Below, piece after piece: positions 3 to 64,000 of a DNA stretch of 64,000 nucleotides. Under the pieces are notes generated by a model that made no database searches, was not told the DNA's origin, and was given only the letters and a program-made list of their open reading frames with translations. Every line of letters starts with the position of its first letter. The stretch's first letter is position 1. The DNA is from a virus (taxonomy: Duplodnaviria; Caudoviricetes): positions 34,137 to 98,136 of the IMG/VR virus record IMGVR_UViG_2706795976_000001. One strand, given 5' to 3'. A program made the position numbers and the translations under genes.

Positions 3-488
3 GAGACAAACAAGTTCGCGGACGAGGGAAACATCCTCAACGTCTCGAGAAACATCAACGGATGGGTAACGACACCCAACGGAATGCCAGACAGAATCAA
101 ACGATGGAACAATTGCCTCAATATCGGGGCAGCATTACTACCCGAAGGAGATGACGGCATGGCAACTGCCGGAGATTACATCAAGGGACAATTCATGGGC
201 CCCAAGGACGCCGGGTGGGATCAACTCGCCCCGCAGCCGGACGAGAATGGCGTCCGGTGGAGCGCATTCCTGCGCAAGGCAGTCACTAAGCTCACCCTCG
301 TCGAGGCCATCGGACAGCTGGTGTGGGAGGCAACCCTCCGAATTGCACCGTACCGAAACGGAGCCCGTGCGAACGGCAAGGAAACCGTCCTCGGTCACGC
401 CGCTGCAGCCCACGGTGGCACCCTCGACATCCTAGACAAGCTCTCCCAGATCGAAGCCCGTCTCATCGAGCTCGAAAACGACAAGTAA
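3..488 (+). CDS. Lysin A (endolysin), 3' part; GH19 chitinase-like domain end plus C-terminal region
   Basis: Frame is open from base 3 (ETNKFADEGNILNVSRNINGWVTTPNGMPDRIKRW), matching the GH19 'xxxINGxxNGxxDRxxRW' motif; lies directly before a holin. Confidence 0.75.
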   Translation, partial: ETNKFADEGNILNVSRNINGWVTTPNGMPDRIKRWNNCLNIGAALLPEGDDGMATAGDYIKGQFMGPKDAGWDQLAPQPDENGVRWSAFLRKAVTKLTLVEAIGQLVWEATLRIAPYRNGARANGKETVLGHAAAAHGGTLDILDKLSQIEARLIELENDK

Positions 489-497
489 GGAACCACC

Positions 498-908
498 ATG
501 GCCAAGCACAGTGTTCCCGGCTCGCATGCCGGTGCCCTCGACGGAGCTCTCGAGTGGCTGCGTAACGTAGCCACCCCCGAGGCCCGCGCCAAGCTCTACC
601 GCCTCCAGATGGCGATCACCCTCCTGCTCGTCGGTCTCGGCGTGCTTACCACGTCCTCGGCTGCGGTGTGGGTTGGTCTCGTCTCCGGCGTCATCACCTT
701 CCTGTTCGCGGCTGTACAGAAGAGCCCGGCGTGGCGTACGCTCCTGTACGCAGTCCTTGCTCCAGCGCAGGCCTTTGCTCAGTACTACGGCTACCACAAT
801 GACCAGCTCTGGCTGAACGTCGGAGCGGCTGTGGCAACCGTCCTGGGTCTCGAGCTTGCGGCTGAGAAGGCCAAGACGTACCCGGTCGACCCCCCGGCGG
901 CGGCTTAG
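498..908 (+). CDS. Holin
   Basis: 136 aa, about 4 hydrophobic segments, immediately after the lysin, AAGGA RBS. Confidence 0.75.
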   Translation: MAKHSVPGSHAGALDGALEWLRNVATPEARAKLYRLQMAITLLLVGLGVLTTSSAAVWVGLVSGVITFLFAAVQKSPAWRTLLYAVLAPAQAFAQYYGYHNDQLWLNVGAAVATVLGLELAAEKAKTYPVDPPAAA

Positions 909-911
909 ACC

Positions 912-1343
912 ATGTCCATCTTCGGGCGGATCCGAGAATCCCTGGAGACGGGCCAACCGGCCGAGCGCTGGTTCCGAGTTGTCTCATACCTGATGATCTT
1001 CCTCGCGGGAATCATTGCGGGGATTCGTGAGCCGGAGACGTTCGAGAACGCACTGAACCCGCTCTCCCTGTGGGCGTGCTCGGTATTCCTCCTCGTGGGA
1101 GGCCTGCTGGGATCGTGGGCGGTGCTGACCCAGAGATACATGTTCGAGAGGGTGGCAATCCCGTTTAGCGTTACGGGTCTACTGATCTTCCTTCTCGCGA
1201 TCTGGACCCTCGAGCTCCCGGCGACATGGACCAGGTACCTGATCACCGCAGTCTTCATCGCGCTCTGCTCCAAGCTGTTTGCTCGATGGTTCTTCACTAC
1301 CGCGCTGGTTCAGGAACAGCTAGATCGGCCGGAGAGGATCTAA
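912..1343 (+). CDS. Membrane protein (about 4 TM), lysis cassette
   Basis: Multiple hydrophobic helices; position in lysis cluster. Confidence 0.7.
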   Translation: MSIFGRIRESLETGQPAERWFRVVSYLMIFLAGIIAGIREPETFENALNPLSLWACSVFLLVGGLLGSWAVLTQRYMFERVAIPFSVTGLLIFLLAIWTLELPATWTRYLITAVFIALCSKLFARWFFTTALVQEQLDRPERI

Positions 1344-1347
1344 GCCA

Positions 1348-1701
1348 ATGACAGCTGCCGAGATCGCCATCATCCTGACGGCGATCGGCGGCGGAGCAGG
1401 TTTCAAGGCAGTTATTGACGCTATCCGTACGGGAGTACCACACAAGCGTGCCGGTGTGGAATCGGAAGCAATCCAGTCGATCATCGCCGATCGGAATAGG
1501 GCCATCGAAGAACGAAATAGGGCCGTGGAATCCGAGCGTGAAGCCTGGTCACGCGCCGACCAAATGGAGAGCCGGTACGACAAGATGGCCATGTCACGCA
1601 ACAAGTGGCGAGACCGATCGTATCGAGTTGATGCCTGGGTTACCAAGCACCTCAGCACCTCTCCGGAGACCTACCCCGACCAGATCAAGGATGACGACTG
1701 A
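1348..1701 (+). CDS. Single-TM plus coiled-coil lysis accessory protein
   Basis: N-terminal TM with GGGAG followed by a charged coiled coil; typical of actinophage lysis cassettes. Confidence 0.6.
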   Translation: MTAAEIAIILTAIGGGAGFKAVIDAIRTGVPHKRAGVESEAIQSIIADRNRAIEERNRAVESEREAWSRADQMESRYDKMAMSRNKWRDRSYRVDAWVTKHLSTSPETYPDQIKDDD

Positions 1702-2777
1702 TGCCAACCTACGGTGAACTCTTTGGTGAGCCGACAGACGTCCTGCACCCCGAGTTCCGCATCTACGCCATTGACGAGAGCGAAGCCGGGGTGCCGATTC
1801 GGCATCTGTCCATCTCCCTCACCCCCACGCAGGCCACCATGGAGATCCCCCGGGGAGCCCCGGGAGAAACGGGTCCACAGGGCCCTCCTGGTGACCCCTG
1901 GATTCACATGGGGGACCGGACCACTGCCCAGATCGCGGCGCTGTCCCTAGGCACCGCAGACAAGGCTAAGGCGTACCGGAACAGCGACACCAACGCCCTG
2001 CACTACTGGACCGGCACGGCGTGGATTGTCTACAACAACGCATTCGGCATGCAGGGGCCCCAGGGTCCACAGGGTGGTCTCTCTGATGTCACCATCGAGA
2101 TGCTGCCCGAAGGCGAGGACCCGGTGGCATCGGTCACTGGAGCCCCTGGTAGTCAGGTACTCAACCTCGAGATCCCCGAGAAGCCCGGGCCGCAAGGCGC
2201 TACGGGCCCGGCCTCGAGTATTGTCCTGGCCGAGGACTTCGACGACGCAGTCACCCCGTTCAACGGTGCGGTGCTGCGCTACAACGACACCACAGACAAG
2301 TGGTATGCCGGTTCGCCTATCAGCCTCCGTCAGTACTCGATTCCCACATCGGCGTTTGTGGACGTCAACACCTCCTTCACGGACAGCTACAAGCTGATCG
2401 GAACCTTCCCGCTCGACGCACTCGACCACGCCACCACGCTCCACGTCACCGGCCGGTTCATTGTGAGCCAGAGCAACACCTCCCGCATCGCGATTGAGGT
2501 GCGCCTAGGTGCCCCGGGCCCAGCCGACGGTACGCTCATCGCCAAGGGTATCGCACTCTCCGGTACGGGCGAGCAGATCGTCAACATCATGCCTCACTAT
2601 TCAACCCCTGCGTCACCGGCTACCGCAACAGCACCCGGTGGATACATAGGAGTAATCCCCGCCACCCACACGGGCAACACGGGGACTATCTATGTCTCGG
2701 TCATCCGCCTCGGTGGTGTCGGCTCCTGGCAGGTCAAGTCCGACTACGCGCAGGTGTCCGTACTTCGCCACTCGTAA
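1701..2777 (+). CDS. Minor tail protein with short collagen-like G-X-Y repeats
   Basis: GAPGETGPQGPPG, GMQGPQGPQG; beta-rich C-terminus. Confidence 0.75.
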   Translation: MPTYGELFGEPTDVLHPEFRIYAIDESEAGVPIRHLSISLTPTQATMEIPRGAPGETGPQGPPGDPWIHMGDRTTAQIAALSLGTADKAKAYRNSDTNALHYWTGTAWIVYNNAFGMQGPQGPQGGLSDVTIEMLPEGEDPVASVTGAPGSQVLNLEIPEKPGPQGATGPASSIVLAEDFDDAVTPFNGAVLRYNDTTDKWYAGSPISLRQYSIPTSAFVDVNTSFTDSYKLIGTFPLDALDHATTLHVTGRFIVSQSNTSRIAIEVRLGAPGPADGTLIAKGIALSGTGEQIVNIMPHYSTPASPATATAPGGYIGVIPATHTGNTGTIYVSVIRLGGVGSWQVKSDYAQVSVLRHS

Positions 2778-2790
2778 CATCTAGGGAGCC

Positions 2791-4557
2791 ATGAACGAGA
2801 CTAACAAGCTCATGGCCACTCAGATCTTTGAGTGGCTGGACTTCACTGTAGACATCATTGAGATTCTGCAGTTCATCGGAGACCTCCGTGAGCTTGTCGA
2901 CGCCATCATGCAGGCATTCGGTGGTAATTTTGAACCACTCACAGACTGGGTTGAGGCGTTTGTCGCGGATCCATGGCCAGGGTTCGAATGGCTATCCGGG
3001 CTTGGCGACTGGTCGTCGCTAGACACCATCTTTGCCCCATTTAGTGCCATTGGTGATGCAGTTGAGGGTGTCCAAGGAATCATCCTGAATGTCATCAACG
3101 CCATCATGTCCGCGATCCGTAAGGTGCCTGTCGTGGGCGGCGAGATCGCCGACCGTATCGGGGAGATGAAGACCGACGTTGGGGGTGTCGCTGACACAGC
3201 CCAGGAGGCATCCCAGCAAGCAGAGAGTATCAGTAACCAAGTTCATTATGTGCGAGAGGTCATCTCGCTACGAGCGGGCCGAAGTGTTTGGGAGACCGGA
3301 CCCGACCGCACGGGAACGGTCAGCTTCCCATTTGGCCTACTGAACATCATGGGTGGATCCTTCACCACCTCCAGCGAATCTCACACTCACACCATTAACG
3401 GCAGTACCGCCAACGCGACTGCCGGTGGAACATCCCACTCGCACAGCAATGGCGGACTGAACAACACCAGTAATAGCCATAGCCACACGGGAACTGTGGG
3501 TGGCTCCGTCCCCACTGTGAACGTCACCGCCACGTATGCTCCTTGGGGAAACCTGATTTTCGACTCGAATGCCGAGCGAAGGGTGCTCACCTTCATCGGC
3601 ATGAGAACCGGAACAGTAACCTCCTTCAACCTCGATCTATACAAGATGGAAGAAGACGGATCCAGCACTCTGGTTTACTCGAGTCCGGACCTGGCACCCG
3701 GGCTAGGTGCAACCCTTCAATGGCAGCAACATCTCCTGCCCAACAAGGTACTTACCGACATTGGAGACATATACGACGTCCAGTTCCGAATGGTTGGGTC
3801 GGGGACAGTTACGGTTGCCGGTGTCAATATGCCATACCCGACACCCATTCCAGGGCTCAGGCCCTACTCGTCGGGATCGGCGAGAAACCCATCCTCCAGC
3901 CCAGCTCCAACAACGATCAGCACCGCCACCAGGGATTCGATGTACGTAGGACCTACACCGTGGATCTCCTTCGGAATTGATGTTGGGCAGACCGCAATCC
4001 CGCGTTACTTCTACGACGATCTCAATCGTACTTCCTGGGGGTCCAGCTGGGTCATCGCCCAGGATATGGGCCTCAGCAGTGGTCGGGCCTATCACCCAGG
4101 AGGGTTCCTCACTGGAGGGGACGGCCGATCGATATGGCAGCAGCAGACCCTCACCGACACCGTGGAATCTACATTCACGATCACGACCGCCAATTCTGGA
4201 TTCATGGGCGTGGGTATCTGCCTGAATTCCAGCGGTACGGCCGGGGCCTGGGTGATGGTCAACAATGAGGAAACCAACCTATGTACCGGTTCGTATGAAA
4301 TAGCCAATCGAACCGAAAGATCCACCGCCCCAATCGGTGGGGCGGGATCGTATAAGGTCAGGTACACTGCCGTCGATAACACTTACCGGGTTTACAAGGA
4401 CGGCTCAACCACGCCCATAATTTCATGGGTTGACTCGTCTAATGTTGTCACTCACGGACTGGGGCGAAGGTGGGTCGGAATCATCGCCGCCAAGGGCTCC
4501 TTCCAGGACTCTTCCTATCTGGACAACTGGTCGGCCTACGACTACTCAGCTGCATAA
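2791..4557 (+). CDS. Minor tail / receptor-binding protein
   Basis: Helical N-terminus, three HxH motifs, lectin-like C-terminal domain; tail cluster position. Confidence 0.7.
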   Translation: MNETNKLMATQIFEWLDFTVDIIEILQFIGDLRELVDAIMQAFGGNFEPLTDWVEAFVADPWPGFEWLSGLGDWSSLDTIFAPFSAIGDAVEGVQGIILNVINAIMSAIRKVPVVGGEIADRIGEMKTDVGGVADTAQEASQQAESISNQVHYVREVISLRAGRSVWETGPDRTGTVSFPFGLLNIMGGSFTTSSESHTHTINGSTANATAGGTSHSHSNGGLNNTSNSHSHTGTVGGSVPTVNVTATYAPWGNLIFDSNAERRVLTFIGMRTGTVTSFNLDLYKMEEDGSSTLVYSSPDLAPGLGATLQWQQHLLPNKVLTDIGDIYDVQFRMVGSGTVTVAGVNMPYPTPIPGLRPYSSGSARNPSSSPAPTTISTATRDSMYVGPTPWISFGIDVGQTAIPRYFYDDLNRTSWGSSWVIAQDMGLSSGRAYHPGGFLTGGDGRSIWQQQTLTDTVESTFTITTANSGFMGVGICLNSSGTAGAWVMVNNEETNLCTGSYEIANRTERSTAPIGGAGSYKVRYTAVDNTYRVYKDGSTTPIISWVDSSNVVTHGLGRRWVGIIAAKGSFQDSSYLDNWSAYDYSAA

Positions 4558-29557: not shown

Positions 29558-30478
29558 ATGAGTGGACGACAGCAGACGGCGCACGAGGCGGTACGTCAGG
29601 GCCGGTGGAGGACGCTGCGCGAGGACAGTGGGTGGGAGACTTACGCAGAGGCCGACTCGGCGATGAACCTCAATCCCGGAGCCTGGGAGATCCTGGAGAA
29701 CCAGACCGGTTGGAAGGTGCCACTCAACCAGCTGCAGGCTGCACGAGACATCGAGAAGGCTCTGAACCTAGTGCCCGACTGGTTGCAGGGGTACAGCCAG
29801 TTCAGCAAGGTGGTGAAGCCTGGATCTACCCGACGCGGCCGCGCGTCAGGACGAACGTATGTCGATGCCTGGCCTGCGCAAGTCCACCTCGACCTAGCTG
29901 TCCATGAGTACGGATACGCCATGAGTGAAGACGACCACGGCTGCGGGTACATCGGCGAGTTCCTGAACATCGGATCAGATGAGTGCCTAAGCCGGTTGAT
30001 CAACGCGAAAAAGGGTGAGGTGCTAATCGATTCCGAGTTCTCGAAGGGACTCCTCGAGATACCACTGAACCCTAAGTGGCGAGCACCGAGTGCCATTGGG
30101 GCACAACGACGTCTGCGTGGCCTGCTCGCGTGGGGGTACTCACCCTCGGTGCTGCGGAATAGGCTATCTATGCAAAAGGTGGTGTTCGACCGAACCGTAT
30201 TCGGAAGTGGAACAGTGCCACTGAATATCAAGATGGGCTCCAGGGTGTCGAGGCTGTTCATTGAACTCGAGCTCGAGCCGGGCACCTCCCGGGTCGGCAG
30301 GGGGCTTGCGGACAAGTACGGCTGGGAGCTCCCCTTCCAGTGGGACGAGGAAGCCATCGACCGTCGGGCAGCCAAGCCGGGGTACGCGCGTACCGAGGAA
30401 GATGAGCCGAGGGAGTATACACCAGCCGAGCGACAGGCCATCATTGGGTACGAGCTGTCACGTCACTGGGGGTACTGA
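29558..30478 (+). CDS. Hypothetical, possibly DNA-binding protein
   Basis: C-terminal 'G..RRL..L...G.....L...GW..P..WD' actinophage motif. Confidence 0.6.
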   Translation: MSGRQQTAHEAVRQGRWRTLREDSGWETYAEADSAMNLNPGAWEILENQTGWKVPLNQLQAARDIEKALNLVPDWLQGYSQFSKVVKPGSTRRGRASGRTYVDAWPAQVHLDLAVHEYGYAMSEDDHGCGYIGEFLNIGSDECLSRLINAKKGEVLIDSEFSKGLLEIPLNPKWRAPSAIGAQRRLRGLLAWGYSPSVLRNRLSMQKVVFDRTVFGSGTVPLNIKMGSRVSRLFIELELEPGTSRVGRGLADKYGWELPFQWDEEAIDRRAAKPGYARTEEDEPREYTPAERQAIIGYELSRHWGY

Positions 30479-30531: not shown

Positions 30532-30924
30532 GTGATAGTCATGAGTGAACACAATCAGGATTGGCTGCCCCGCTTCCATTCGGGGTACAGGATCGAGCCC
30601 TCCGGGTGTCACGTGTGGCAGAAAGCCACCAACAACCGAGGGTATGGTGTGATGTACCTGAACGGAAAGCTCCAGCTAGCCCACCGGGTGGCCTTCTTTT
30701 CCAGACATGGCCGGTGGCCCCAGCGGGGCCTGGTGATAGATCACCTGTGCGAGAACAAGCCTTGCGTCAATCCGGACCATCTTCGTGAGATCGAGAACTG
30801 GAGGAACGTCCGGAGGCCGCGAGAGGTCGGATCGACAGACCAGGAGCGTCGGCGGGAGCAGTGGAGAATACGTCAGGCTAGATGTCGCGGCAGCTACTCT
30901 AGCACATACGAAGCGAAGAGGTGA
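30532..30924 (+). CDS. HNH endonuclease
   Basis: GCHVWQ...GYG...AHRVA...DHLCENKPCVNPDHL. Confidence 0.87.
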   Translation: MIVMSEHNQDWLPRFHSGYRIEPSGCHVWQKATNNRGYGVMYLNGKLQLAHRVAFFSRHGRWPQRGLVIDHLCENKPCVNPDHLREIENWRNVRRPREVGSTDQERRREQWRIRQARCRGSYSSTYEAKR

Positions 30925-31742
30925 TTCAGATTACTTGGTTCAAGATCGACGATGGGTTCTGGTCCAACGAGAAGGTCCTAGGCTTGTCTGCCGAGGCCGG
31001 ATGGCTCTGGGTTCGGTGCGGCTCGTACTCGTGTCAGCACCTCACGGATGGATACATATCCAGCCTTGCGTTGAACCTGATTTGCACATGTTCAGATCCT
31101 GTTCAACTTGCGGATGAACTTGTGCAAGCCGGGCTGTGGATACGTGTTCAAAATGGGTACGAGTTCCATGACTGGAGTGAGTATCAGGAGAGTCGTGCTG
31201 AGGTGCTCGAGCGCCGTGAGCAAGGAAGACTCCGTCAGAAGAAGCGTCGAGAACGCCAGGCAGAGGGCTCCAAACCGTCACGCGTTACCGACGCCGTGAG
31301 TTCGACCCCCCCGACCCGACCCGACCCGACCCGACCCGACCCGACCAAGTTAGACTCTAAAGAGTCTAACGGTAAACACTCTCGGTCAGCTGCGCTGACC
31401 ACCCGACAGCCCAAGGCCTACGATCCGAGATTTGAGTCGTGGTGGCAGGTGTACCCTCGGCGAGTTGGCAAGGCTGCGGCCGAGAAGTCATGGCTCAAAG
31501 CGGTCAAGGACGGCGTCGACCCGGCGCTGCTGGAGAAACGGGCTGCTGCCTACGCCGACCACGTCAAGCGCCAGCGCACGGAGGTCAAGTTCATCGCTCA
31601 CCCCAGGACCTGGCTCAGCCAGGGCAGGTGGGACGACGAGTACGACACGACTCAGCCGGAGGGGTCCAACATGGGCCAGGCCGTCAGCCGCCTAGCCGCC
31701 TACGCCCAGAACCACGCCAAGCAGATCGGAGGCCGACCGTGA
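30921..31742 (+). CDS. RepA-like replication initiator
   Basis: WFKIDDGF...LTDG...LV.AGLW...HDW.EYQ; C-terminal FE.WW..YPRRVGK..A...HP.TWL...RW.D. Confidence 0.8.
   Translation: MIQITWFKIDDGFWSNEKVLGLSAEAGWLWVRCGSYSCQHLTDGYISSLALNLICTCSDPVQLADELVQAGLWIRVQNGYEFHDWSEYQESRAEVLERREQGRLRQKKRRERQAEGSKPSRVTDAVSSTPPTRPDPTRPDPTKLDSKESNGKHSRSAALTTRQPKAYDPRFESWWQVYPRRVGKAAAEKSWLKAVKDGVDPALLEKRAAAYADHVKRQRTEVKFIAHPRTWLSQGRWDDEYDTTQPEGSNMGQAVSRLAAYAQNHAKQIGGRP
31311..31370. repeat. (CCGAC)7 tandem repeat plus perfect 10-bp inverted repeat inside repA
   Basis: CCGAC x7 at 31311-31345; GTTAGACTCT-AA-AGAGTCTAAC at 31349-31370. Confidence 0.85.
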
Positions 31743-32296
31743 GCGAGAACACCAACGACTGCGCGATCATCGCGGCACAGGTCCTGGCTGCGGCTGCCAC
31801 GTTCGACGAGAAGCTCGCCGGGATCATGGCTGGCGAGACCGACCAGCAGTTCGCCTTCCGCATCCAGATGTGGTCCGAGGTCATCGCCATGGGGCCCTAC
31901 CCCCGGCTCAACGAGTGCCTGGCAGCCGTTCGCAAGCACTACGCCACGTCGGACTACCCGATCAAGCCGGTCGCGATCGTCGAGTATCTGAAGACCGTGG
32001 GTGTGGACTCCTCGAACGAGCGGTTCCGGGACTGGCTCTACGACCACGCCACCAAGTACCCACGGTCCCGCCAGATCGCAGTCAAGTCCGGACTCGAGCA
32101 GCCGTACTTCGATCACCTGTCTCGCGAGGAAGCCACCCGGGAGTTCGTGAAGTGGATTCAGGACCACGAGGATGAGCTCCTCGGCCGGTGCGTCGGCAAG
32201 CTCCAGGCCCGCCAAGATGAGATCCGCCGAGAGCTCGAATCGGTGTACGATCCGTACGGAGAATCACACAAACCAGATCTGGAGGGTCTCGAGTGA
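31739..32296 (+). CDS. Putative helicase loader-like protein
   Basis: Follows repA by GTGA overlap; 'W...I......CLAAVRKHY....PIKP' motif. Confidence 0.5.
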   Translation: MSENTNDCAIIAAQVLAAAATFDEKLAGIMAGETDQQFAFRIQMWSEVIAMGPYPRLNECLAAVRKHYATSDYPIKPVAIVEYLKTVGVDSSNERFRDWLYDHATKYPRSRQIAVKSGLEQPYFDHLSREEATREFVKWIQDHEDELLGRCVGKLQARQDEIRRELESVYDPYGESHKPDLEGLE

Positions 32297-40366: not shown

Positions 40367-40888
40367 ATGGCAAACGATGTGCATGTCACAGTGACCGGTA
40401 ATCTGGCCGGTCCAGTTGAGTTGAGGTTCACTCCGAGTGGGGTTGCGGTAGCCAATTTCACTGTGGTGTCAAATCCCCGGAGATTCGACAAGCAAACGAA
40501 TTCCTGGATTGACGAGGAGCCATGGTTCGTACGTTGCAACATCTGGCGTGACGCGGCCGAGAATGCCGCAGAGTCGCTTGACAAGGGCACTCGAGTGATC
40601 GTCCAGGGGCGTCTCAAGTCCCGGTCATATACCACCAACGAAGGCGAGGATCGAACGGTCCTTGAGCTCGAGGTCGATGAGATCGGACCCTCGCTGCAGT
40701 GGGCCACTGCTAAGGTTCAGCGCACCGAACGAGGCGGCGGAAACCGAGGCGGAGGCGGTTGGGCCAACAACGCCCAGCAGTCGTCGGTCCAGGAGACCTC
40801 GCAGGCCGCACAGAACTTCGCCGGGGCGGGGATGACCTCCGGTGCGGATGATCCCTGGGGCGGCGGCACATCCGGCCCTCCGTTCTGA
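40367..40888 (+). CDS. ssb: Single-stranded DNA-binding protein
   Basis: GNL...[13 protein letters not shown]...[20 protein letters not shown]...EIGPSL; ends PPF. Confidence 0.95.
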
Positions 40889-48956: not shown

Positions 48957-49109
48957 CTGGGAGCCGTGGGACGGTGACATTGATGTCCCTGTGACGGTGT
49001 GCATTATCCACAAGCGGTTCATCCCGTGTCGTCGTACAGAGCCCATGTGTGAGCTGAGCTCCACGCCAGAAGATGTCGAGATGGTACGCAAGTACCAGCA
49101 AGGGTAGAG

Positions 49110-62660: not shown

Positions 62661-63152
62661 TCAGTAGTGAGTTGCAATAGCCTTCGCCGGATCGATTAGG
62701 TAGGCGTGGCAAAAAGCTACTTGGTCATCAGGAAAGCGATGGTTGGCAGTTGTGTACTCGACTTGTCCAATCGTATCGGCCACGTACAACCGTATGGCAG
62801 ACTCACTCACTCCCAATCCGCGTAGAGTTGGGATATGGTGGCGTGTCTGGACATGAGTTTCACCTACCGGGGTAAAGTCCAGCCCGTGCAACAAATGTCC
62901 ATCCAAGTCATGCCAGAACCGAAACGCGTAGTTTGTTTCGTGATCGGGATAGATGGTTGCATCACTTCCGCCGGACCATACGGTAAGCGTGTCCGATTGG
63001 GCCCGGTAGTGCTCGCACAACGTTTCGTACGTGTTGGGGGCATCGTCGGCGATGGACAACGTTCGGCCGGTACGTGCGCTCGCACGCCTAGCGAGAACTG
63101 TCACAGCGCGCGCTAGTTCAGTCGACGCACGTTCGAATTCGATGTCAATCAT
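62661..63152 (-). CDS. Hypothetical protein, first gene of the leftward block
   Basis: APNTY...VWSGGSD.TIY...NYAFRFWHD..H...DFT..GE. Confidence 0.6.
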   Translation of the reverse strand: MIDIEFERASTELARAVTVLARRASARTGRTLSIADDAPNTYETLCEHYRAQSDTLTVWSGGSDATIYPDHETNYAFRFWHDLDGHLLHGLDFTPVGETHVQTRHHIPTLRGLGVSESAIRLYVADTIGQVEYTTANHRFPDDQVAFCHAYLIDPAKAIATHY

Positions 63153-63299
63153 TTTTCGATCCTCTCACAATTTGGGGAGTACTGGCAACCGTGGCGCGCG
63201 TACCGGGTGGCCGATACGCGACCATGGTTGTCAGTGACCCGTGTGCATAGGGACCATTATGCCCCTGACATGCGGATATCTGGTAGTGGGAGTCATGCC

Positions 63300-63900
63300 C
63301 TAGGGGAATTGTTACGCAACTGTGACCATTGCAGAGAACAGGGTATCCCTATGTCCTACCCCTAGGGTGAAACGTCACTGTGACTAATACATGTATACGT
63401 ATACTAGCTACCCATGGGTAGGGTAGGGTAGGGTACCCTACCCATGGCCGTGCCTATGGTACGGACGTACCAACAATCATCTACCTATTTAGAATTAAAC
63501 ATCTAACTATTTAAGATTGAACATCTAACTAATTGAATGGCACTATCGTACCAGTAAGGGCACCCTAACTAGTACGCCTGTACCATACTGCAGGCGTACC
63601 CCATGGGGGTATCGGCTCGGAATGGTACGCGCGTACCAAACCCGCTCGAGGGTACCCCCTAGGGGTATCGGCTCGGAATGGTACGGCCGTACAACTTAGG
63701 CAACCCTAACTAGTACGATCGTGCCAAACCTCGGGCACGGGTACCCCTGGGGGGTATGCGCCATACCCTAGGGGGGTACCGGTATCGGCGAGAATTGGTA
63801 CGCGCGTACAACTTAGGTCACCCTAACTAGTACGATCGTGCCAGAATCTGGCGGGGGTACCCCATGGGGGTATGCCCGTTTGGCACGGCCGTACCAAAAC
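63300..63900. repeat. Non-coding modular array of palindromic operator-like sites
   Basis: 5x TACCC-N5-GGGTA, 3x TWAGG-N4-CCTAA, 9x TRGYAC-N4-GTRCMA, 3x 22-bp AT-rich repeat, (GGGTA)4. Confidence 0.9.
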
Positions 63901-64000
63901 CCGAAAGTCGGTGCCGCCCAACGTCTTTCGCGGCCGACCGCCAAAACCGTTGCGGCGCTTGCCAACCCCCCTCCCCGGGGGTCGCCGCCGCGCGAAGCTC

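Follow-up and report, generated by a model that had tools for sequence, protein, structure and literature searches.

The DNA considered here, a window of 64,000 bases, is the rightmost part of the 98,136-bp genome of the Gordonia phage Yvonnetastic, a singleton phage whose host is G. terrae 3612 (published phage description). The phage is identified by its genome length, which equals the published one, by a G+C content of 59.7% and by its last ten bases. The element of interest is an array of inverted repeats, or dyads, at positions 63300–63900 of the window, which combines predicted operators of a host copper repressor with dyads that appear specific to the phage lineage. The final 10 bases of the window (CGCGAAGCTC; 63991–64000, + strand) are identical to the published 10-base 3′ extension of Yvonnetastic and base 64000 is therefore the physical cohesive (cos) end of the genome, so that what the initial annotation had called a likely genome end is a true one. 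Between this extension and the array lies a cos-proximal conserved segment (63897–63990, + strand; CCAAAACC... CAACCCCCC) that is common to the right ends of Cluster CQ phages. A crude gene map of the window consists of leftward genes at 103–3290, a long rightward block containing terS, terL and the structural, lysis, integrase and replication genes, and a second leftward block that begins with an ATG at 63152, which places the array upstream of a leftward block as had been suggested. The 848 bases between this ATG and the right end are non-coding, the open reading frame (ORF) listing for 63153–64000 containing no ORF with coding character. The authors who described Yvonnetastic reported that its rightmost 10 kb are transcribed leftward and did not mention the array.

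Three dyad classes make up the array, and these are almost confined to this stretch of the 98-kb genome. Class A (TGGTAC-N4-GTACCA or, in a fuller reading, TGGTACG-NN-CGTACCA) spans 16 bp and is present in nine copies; class B (TACCCC-N3-GGGGTA) spans 15 bp and is present in five, four of them exact and one with a single arm change; class C (TWAGG-N4-CCTAA) spans 14 bp and is present in three. When all 98,136 bp of the genome were scanned for these motifs, B and C were found in the array alone and A had two good copies outside it. Perfect dyads with 6-bp arms number 23 in the region, compared with 1.8 ± 1.6 (maximum 9) in 200 dinucleotide shuffles and a mean of 1.2 per 601-bp window in the rest of the genome.

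The individual sites, located by motif scan, follow a recurring order towards the cos end. The outermost copy from the end, A1 (TGGTACGGACGTACCA; 63457–63472), can be read as either a 7-2-7 or a 6-4-6 dyad. The composite A-C-A, a unit of 48 bp, then occurs three times: as A2 (TGGCACTATCGTACCA; 63538–63553), C1 (TAAGGGCACCCTAA; 63555–63568) and A3 (TAGTACGCCTGTACCA; 63570–63585), as A5 (63679–63694), C2 (TTAGGCAACCCTAA; 63696–63709) and A6 (63711–63726), and as A7 (63796–63811), C3 (TTAGGTCACCCTAA; 63813–63826) and A8 (63828–63843). The B boxes are interspersed with these units, and on four occasions a B is followed by an A at a centre-to-centre distance of 23.5–32.5 bp. B1 (TACCCCATGGGGGTA; 63597–63611), a TAC-N9-GTA repeat with C/G tracts, precedes the perfect dyad A4 (TGGTACGCGCGTACCA; 63623–63638) by 26.5 bp and B2 (TACCCCCTAGGGGTA; 63653–63667) precedes A5 by the same distance; B3 (TACCCCTGGGGGGTA; 63742–63756) and B4 (TACCCTAGGGGGGTA; 63764–63778), the copy with one arm change, lie before the third unit, and the cos-proximal box B5 (TACCCCATGGGGGTA; 63858–63872) lies 23.5 bp before the cos-proximal dyad A9 (63881–63896), itself 111 bp from the end. 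Part of this order reflects a near-duplication, since 63664–63726 and 63781–63843 are 87% identical. Among the nine A copies, six have a mismatch in one arm that the other arm does not compensate, and compensatory pairs are lacking throughout; together with the freely varying centres, this indicates a site for a dimeric protein and not a selected hairpin. The initial annotation had described about 600 bp devoid of ORFs, built from ordered palindromic modules with one near-duplicated segment, and had read the conserved arms and variable centres as the signature of protein sites, a description that holds throughout. A structured RNA or hairpin array was considered and rejected on account of the uncompensated mismatches and the lack of any Rfam match at threshold; a single sub-threshold match to a microRNA family at 63165–63253 (− strand), scoring 27 bits against a gathering score of 55, is attributed to chance.

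Class B can be assigned to a known operator type. The type-2 operator of the actinobacterial repressor CsoR is a TAC-N9-GTA inverted repeat flanking C/G tracts, with the consensus ATATACCCCTNAGGGGTATAT (PMC3902906), and all five B boxes conform to this definition. The sites bound by Streptomyces lividans CsoR at copZA1, copZA2 and csoR include GGGTACCCCCTAGGGGTATAC (PMC3902906, Table 1), and B2 taken with its flanks (63651–63668; GGTACCCCCTAGGGGTAT) matches the core of the copZA1 operator at 18 of 18 nucleotides (PMC3902906). The motif was also sought in the host lineage, that is, in genomes of the bacterial family that holds the host's relatives, centred on a Rhodococcus genome, with the reversed motif serving as control. 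Across 151 such genomes, TACCCC-N3-GGGGTA occurs at 267 sites, distributed over 119 genomes, against 10 for the reversed control; the count includes one hit in an unpublished genome, G072, on which the result does not depend. At two of the four loci inspected (in G086 and G027) the boxes lie 14–60 bp upstream of small genes encoding HMA-domain (CopZ-like) proteins, the box in G086 being also divergent from a YHS-domain gene; at the third (G058) the ORFs beside the box have no Pfam match, and at the fourth (G001) the box is about 235 bp upstream of a cold-shock-domain gene. Genes of the CsoR family (PF02583) are present in both of the host-family genomes checked for them, G001 and G003. By sequence, B is thus an operator of the host CsoR/RicR-type copper repressor. 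The initial annotation had recognized no such regulators in the window, and for CsoR this stands, as a search of the phage confined to the CsoR family (PF02583) found no such gene.

Classes A and C have no such counterpart in the host family. The iron box recognized by IdeR/DtxR is a 19-bp palindrome, TTAGGTTAGGCTAACCTAA, whose outer arms are 9 bp apart. Class C shares the arm pentamers of this box, but at a spacing of 4 bp instead of 9, and the best 19-mer match in the region has five to six mismatches; furthermore, CTTAGG-N4-CCTAAC occurs 11 times in 41 host-family genomes against 11 for the control, showing no enrichment. Of the two classes of metal-regulator operator initially proposed, the copper type is therefore upheld by the family-wide counts and the 18-nt identity of B2, and the iron type is rejected. 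The A motif is likewise not over-represented (21 sites against 18 for the control in 61 genomes), and its exact 14-base form gives scattered single matches across many phyla. These counts speak against A as an operator of a host regulon, although a single-target, Gordonia-specific regulator is still compatible with them. They also leave the suggested resemblance of the 16-bp palindrome to GlnR, MtrA or ArsR sites without support, the more so as the arms vary with phage lineage within one host strain. The idea that the array responds to nitrogen status has no basis. The mycobacterial SOS box is TCGAAC-N4-GTTCGA (PMC3381160); A has the same 6-4-6 geometry, yet differs at 4 of 12 bases, including the GAAC core, and was rejected as a LexA site. 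Since neither motif is enriched in the host family and the arms change with phage lineage, A and C are likely to be bound by one or more phage-encoded proteins. The two A-type sites outside the array, at 49082–49097 (TGGTACGCAAGTACCA), in the 3′ end of a small predicted ORF, and at 30380–30395 (GGGTACGCGCGTACCG), within a phrog_1590 gene, are each expected by chance only about 0.005–0.01 times by our own estimate, and are possibly secondary sites of the A-binding protein.

The closest sequenced relatives of Yvonnetastic are the Gordonia Cluster CQ phages, with protein identities of 50–70%, and both ends of these genomes are homologous to its own: the left ends share GTGTGCTCGC-N4-TGTACGGGTTCC and the right ends ...CAAAACCG..CAACCCCCC..CGCGCGA(A/C)GCTC. 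Equivalent arrays, which the initial annotation had proposed to look for at the ends of related phages, are present as non-coding dyad arrays at the right end of every relative inspected, namely OneUp, BrutonGaster, four CQ1 phages and the more distant phages Daredevil, Bantam and Mollymur, which have the same small-terminase family. The gene content of these relatives differs, and the length of their right-end non-coding DNA varies from almost none as annotated (Bachita) through approximately 0.3–0.9 kb in other CQ phages to approximately 1.5 kb in the Daredevil group. Despite a common host strain, the dyad arms differ between Yvonnetastic and the CQ phages while the geometry is kept. In the CQ1 phages and OneUp the dyads are of the form ACCGAGC-N4-GCTCGGT and are restricted to the end. 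The position of A9 matches that of an ACCGAGC-type dyad located 108.5 bp from the end in OneUp and in BrutonGaster, and both of these phages carry one B-type box about 25 bp before this cos-proximal dyad, so that the pairing of B with a following dyad is retained. A C-type motif is found as TTAGGGAAGCCTAA in OneUp and in three of the four CQ1 ends read, and is absent from the end of WilliamBoone. It also occurs next to dyads in Bantam and in Daredevil, the latter having five CQ-type dyads that abut C-type TAAGGGYRCCCTAA motifs, just as A adjoins C in Yvonnetastic.

The host-type boxes also change from one relative to another. BrutonGaster (NC_048169.1) has five additional dyads, TTCGAAC-N4-GTTCGAA, at 90927–91361, which compared with the SOS box comprise three perfect sites, one with a single mismatch and one with two. 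These boxes point to SOS-linked control or to loading of LexA at the end of a temperate phage and, being at the equivalent place, they strengthen the case for recruitment of a host regulator there. A sixth perfect SOS 16-mer lies at 40797–40814 of the same genome, inside an exonuclease gene. In the Daredevil group, CRP-like TGTGA-N6-TCACA palindromes are conserved (L274:750, TGTGACGTACGTCACA, in Daredevil; L275:982 in Bantam; L276:951 in Mollymur). The unannotated last 1.5 kb or so of these three genomes each contain at least 10 repeats of GCAGGTCAGAGCG / CTGACCTGC, and a related motif, CGCTGGTCA, is also present in the right ends of CQ and Cluster A phages.

Boxes of the B type are not limited to these phages. 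A scan of IMG/VR for GTACCCC-N3-GGGGTAT returned many isolate genomes of about 50 kb in which the box lies 20–50 bp from the end of the contig. These are Cluster A mycobacteriophages, for example Anselm and MA5, and the box is at their right cos end. The terminal 52 bp of MA5, the sole widely conserved part of its right end, are common to 108 records, and its last 170 bp contain four tandem CsoR-type boxes (GGTACCCC-N3-GGGGTATNG) just inside the cos end; MA5 thus has a small array like the one in Yvonnetastic, although its genome, of Cluster A, looks unrelated. The box also follows an HNH gene, 33–49 bp from the end, in a 61-kb phage that has another terminase. As B is a CsoR operator by sequence and the same box occurs at more than a hundred mycobacteriophage ends, phages of the Yvonnetastic type and of Cluster A probably load a host regulator onto the genome end. 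Other searches added nothing: the array region had no nucleotide match in the phage collection, relatives reached through a neighbouring 163-aa gene were distant and without the motifs, no prophage relatives were found in bacterial genomes by way of TerL, and among public sequencing runs no RNA run was listed, a small share of the words being present in two wastewater runs alone.

Cluster A phages and Yvonnetastic have in common a small terminase of family PF25673 and a homologous TerL (33% identical). Their left ends also share a motif, TGTACGGGTT(T)CCAAG followed by a T tract, which occupies bases 13–31 of the Yvonnetastic genome and L277:15–32 in Anselm and is found in Cluster CQ; an IMG/VR scan for it returned known isolates only. 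In HK97, the small terminase binds the left end at +15 to +29 (PMC11331095), where the most conserved motif of the present clade is also located. By analogy, the left-end motif TGTACGGGTT(T)CC, at approximately +15 to +27, is a candidate TerS recognition site for the PF25673 family, and its placement suggests that packaging probably starts at the left end, making the array the last DNA to be packaged. Packaging proceeds from the left end in both HK97 and lambda.

A model in which the array corresponds to cosB of lambda must be considered in this context. Here the A dyads would bind TerS to start packaging and B would serve as the site of a bending factor, which would account for the proximity of the array to the cos cut, for a host-factor-type site between the dyads and for arms that vary by lineage as packaging specificities do. 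Set against this, the left-end motif is the likelier TerS site, judging from HK97 (PMC11331095), and the terS gene lies about 10 kb in from the opposite genome end. Moreover, the TerS proteins of OneUp and BrutonGaster are 97% identical although BrutonGaster has five added SOS-type dyads, which are all that distinguishes the two arrays, and the TerS of Daredevil, only 39% identical to that of Yvonnetastic, coexists with CQ-type dyads. The small terminase is therefore unlikely to be the binder of the whole array, and the cosB-type model is regarded as improbable.

A second possibility is that the array controls transcription. According to this scenario, it would be an operator bank for the leftward early operon of the right arm, at which host CsoR (LexA in BrutonGaster) and a phage repressor bound at A and C silence the early leftward promoter in lysogens or in cells free of stress, and copper stress, or the SOS response in BrutonGaster, releases it. 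As in the phage GIL01, a host repressor would thus substitute for a phage repressor or work alongside one. The location of the array upstream of the leftward block is consistent with this, as are the four B/A pairings at approximately 2.5 helical turns and the fact that B and the BrutonGaster dyads are, by sequence, bona fide repressor operators. In addition, the phage carries an integrase, yet its authors found neither an immunity repressor nor attP, and in Cluster A the leftward promoter Pleft lies about 625 bp from the right end (PMC5712189). A G+C-rich hairpin just past the last leftward gene of the left arm (genome bases 50–90; approximately 58–95 in BrutonGaster and OneUp, by eye) probably terminates leftward transcription before cos, and a terminator at this place would mean that the right-arm leftward operon needs a promoter of its own.

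Despite this, no recognizable promoter coincides with the array. The non-coding leader upstream of the first leftward gene (63153–63293, − strand) contains no consensus promoter. Promoter and terminator scans of 62900–64000, together with a looser −35/−10 scan, gave nothing on the leftward strand, and promoter-like leftward hexamers are absent across 63100–64000. An element at approximately 63262–63300 in the leader resembles, weakly and by eye, the repeated leftward TTGACACCCACC promoter-like element of CQ phages. The A, B and C sites, however, are 300–750 bp away from the first leftward gene, on its upstream side, and none of them is overlapped by a promoter consensus; in BrutonGaster, by our own reading, the LexA boxes and the promoter-like TTGACACCCACC elements are separate, the boxes starting some 80 bp further upstream; and in Cluster A the B box lies right beside the cos cut, some 600 bp past the position to which Pleft has been mapped (PMC5712189). 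The leftward genes adjoining the array have no Pfam match apart from DUF7178. On balance, an operator bank is the main rival to the explanation preferred below, though an unlikely one.

The inner part of the array (63294–63447) contains degenerate B half-sites (CCCTAGGG), a (GGGTA)n/TACCC inverted repeat at 63406–63447, a 12-bp palindrome (GTATACGTATAC) and two ACGTCACTGTGAC-type elements (63314–63333 and 63372–63391) that are also present in BrutonGaster and OneUp. Between A1 and A2 are three 22-bp direct repeats with the core CATCTAACTATTTA (63475–63540, + strand), which form the sole AT-rich stretch (77% A+T). These repeats raise the possibility of a replication origin, in which they would act as iterons and unwinding element for a phage initiator and the dyads as auxiliary or initiator sites. 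The phage does encode a replication initiator (phrog_9474, E 5e-85; window 30921–31742), one of the outlying A-like sites lies 540 bp upstream of its gene, and the repeat core RTCTAACTRATT is confined to this stretch and the right end of BrutonGaster, the two phages sharing this type of initiator and OneUp and Bachita having an unrelated initiator and no repeats. This link between repeat and initiator nevertheless rests on two genomes. Daredevil and Mollymur share the initiator type and have no TCTAAC repeats in the right-end stretches read (by eye), Daredevil combines the Yvonnetastic-type initiator with CQ-type dyads, WilliamBoone combines a chimeric initiator with the dyads of OneUp, and neither A sites nor repeated families of perfect dyads occur in phages with an initiator N-domain of 50% identity. 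An assignment of the A dyads as initiator sites, which had looked good from covariation across four genomes, was refuted by Daredevil and WilliamBoone. An origin is thus a very improbable account of the array. The replication module itself (window 29558–30478, 30921–31742 on the + strand, and 31739–32296) is mosaic, the phrog_9474 type of initiator being present in Yvonnetastic, BrutonGaster, Daredevil and Mollymur, an unrelated protein in OneUp and Bachita and a chimera in WilliamBoone; in Yvonnetastic the initiator ORF overlaps a longer out-of-frame ORF (31439–32296) that naive gene calling prefers.

The number of boxes has a further possible explanation, namely that replicating phage genomes act as decoys, titrating CsoR (LexA in BrutonGaster) and so derepressing the copper or SOS regulons of the host. 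Five high-quality CsoR boxes stand within 280 bp, compared with 0–8 B-type sites per host-family genome, and the three perfect and two near-perfect SOS boxes of BrutonGaster may be compared with 24 sites with no more than one mismatch in the whole M. tuberculosis genome (PMC3381160). Conversely, Cluster A phages keep one box and always at the cos end, which indicates that position matters and not dosage, the benefit of derepressing copper efflux is not evident, and nine A and three C sites would be left unexplained. Titration, which the initial annotation had listed as a candidate role beside shielding or entry of the end and early transcription tuned to metal or nitrogen status, is the most improbable of the roles considered.

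The explanation preferred here, which is plausible although held tentatively, is that the array is a cos- or end-linked platform for protein loading that combines host CsoR with phage-specified dyad binders. It would be the cos-proximal part of a cis-acting non-coding right end of about 850 bp and would have grown by duplication of a module, [CsoR-type box]-[18-bp dyad]-([TAAGG-N4-CCTAA dyad]-[18-bp dyad]). The five B boxes would be occupied by the host's CsoR/RicR-type copper repressor, the gene for which the phage lacks, and the nine A and three C dyads by one or more dimeric proteins set by the phage lineage. Such a platform would act through occupancy of the DNA beside the cos cut, much as the cos region of lambda is organized by its IHF and gpNu1 sites or the injection-stop region of T5 is marked by DnaA boxes, and not as a classical operator overlapping a promoter. 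If packaging starts at the left, the array is on the end that comes last in packaging and leads the way into the cell, and its role could accordingly lie in cos cleavage and the termination of packaging or in the handling and protection of the entering end. The bound proteins might position or slow terminase before the terminal cut, organize the cos complex as IHF does, or cap or ratchet the entering end.

A role of this kind is favoured because the array lies close to the cut in all relatives irrespective of the genes beside it, because the Cluster A box is right beside the cut and about 600 bp past Pleft (PMC5712189), because the host-type box is exchanged between relatives (CsoR, LexA or CRP-like) and because the sites are multiple and off promoter-like sequence. 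The variation of the host-type boxes fits a need for tight occupancy in place of one particular signal. Several points weigh against it. The binders, the polarity of packaging and the function of the array are all inferred, the pairing of CsoR with B and the functional claims from sequence and the polarity by analogy, and the host evidence is at the level of the family, from genomes around Rhodococcus. A B box is missing from CQ1 phages and from the Daredevil group although their terminases belong to the same family; B is therefore dispensable for this packaging system and forms no part of the terminase core site, accompanying cos repeatedly but not obligatorily. Related phages usually have the same host factor at cos, and the variation seen here would equally fit signal-sensing regulation. 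In temperate phages, a LexA box is normally a sign that transcription is under SOS control. Lastly, a phage-encoded binder of A and C would be absent at DNA entry unless it were borne by the virion.

A broader proposal can be framed from the same observations: that actinobacteriophages of the cos type deliberately equip the end of their DNA that goes last into the capsid and first into the cell with repressors already present in the host, namely CsoR/RicR for Yvonnetastic, Cluster A and other phages, LexA for BrutonGaster and a protein of the CRP type for the Daredevil group, whereby the copper, SOS or cAMP status of the cell would affect cos cleavage, end protection or entry. This generalization is doubtful at present, but, if correct, it would represent a physical, non-transcriptional use of host transcription factors and would tie phage infection or packaging in Mycobacteriales to copper stress, to which mycobacteria are exposed both in soils and within macrophages. 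Should CsoR/RicR indeed bind, copper would influence packaging, entry or early expression, which would be of relevance both to phage biology and to the practical use of phages. Well over a hundred mycobacteriophages of Cluster A carry the box, among them the workhorses L5 and D29 and phages of the Bxb1 type, and the proposal is hence testable in M. smegmatis. Even if the function proves modest, the analysis provides a map of unexplored right-end non-coding DNA in Gordonia Cluster CQ, Daredevil-type and Yvonnetastic phages.

Phage DNA ends with sites for host factors have precedents in lambda, with IHF at cos, and in T5, with DnaA boxes in the injection-stop region, and single LexA boxes in phages are likewise known. 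A full-text literature search found no description of CsoR/RicR boxes linked to phage ends, and a metal-sensing repressor operator as a recurrent part of the cos region appears to be undescribed. The nearest parallel in layout is the right end of the Cluster A phages L5 and D29, where leftward early genes are likewise followed by a long non-coding stretch and then the right cos end, and where non-coding RNA is abundant (PMC5712189); unlike Yvonnetastic, Cluster A has one B box in place of five, asymmetric stoperators in place of the A and C dyads, and a mapped Pleft. The passages of that paper on the right end and its non-coding DNA do not mention the box. T5 offers a second parallel, as its injection-stop (iss) region, with paired DnaA boxes, is a large untranslated region near the first-entering end that has been proposed to act through the binding of a host protein (Davison, bioRxiv 10.1101/866236). 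The two differ in that T5 has terminal repeats, a two-step injection and DnaA, whereas Yvonnetastic is a cos siphovirus with predicted CsoR sites whose first entry is deduced.

With the CsoR operators of S. lividans, the B boxes share the TAC-N9-GTA dyad, the C/G tracts and, in the host family, linkage of the motif to CopZ-like genes. They are distinguished by their occurrence as five phage copies with neither a copper gene nor a recognizable promoter nearby, and by their position, adjoining a DNA end and interleaved 1:1 with another dyad, where binding of CsoR is predicted. Host LexA is a known phage regulator, acting with gp7 in GIL01, in CTXphi and, through tum, in coliphage 186, with one or two boxes in each case, overlapping a promoter. 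Yvonnetastic and, with its SOS boxes, BrutonGaster resemble these phages in that their DNA carries predicted operators of a host repressor not encoded by the phage itself, and depart from them in that the boxes are arrayed at the genome end, away from recognizable promoters. The cos region of lambda is organized as cosQ-cosN-cosB and contains the R sites of gpNu1 as well as the host IHF site I1. In common with lambda cos, the Yvonnetastic array is a non-coding region beside a cohesive-end cut, with phage-specific and host-protein sites whose sequences vary among relatives. It differs in being far larger, with 17 dyads over 450 bp, in lying probably across the cut from the terminase genes and the likely TerS site, and in its predicted host factor, which would be a metal-sensing repressor and not a nucleoid protein, the host-type box itself differing between relatives.

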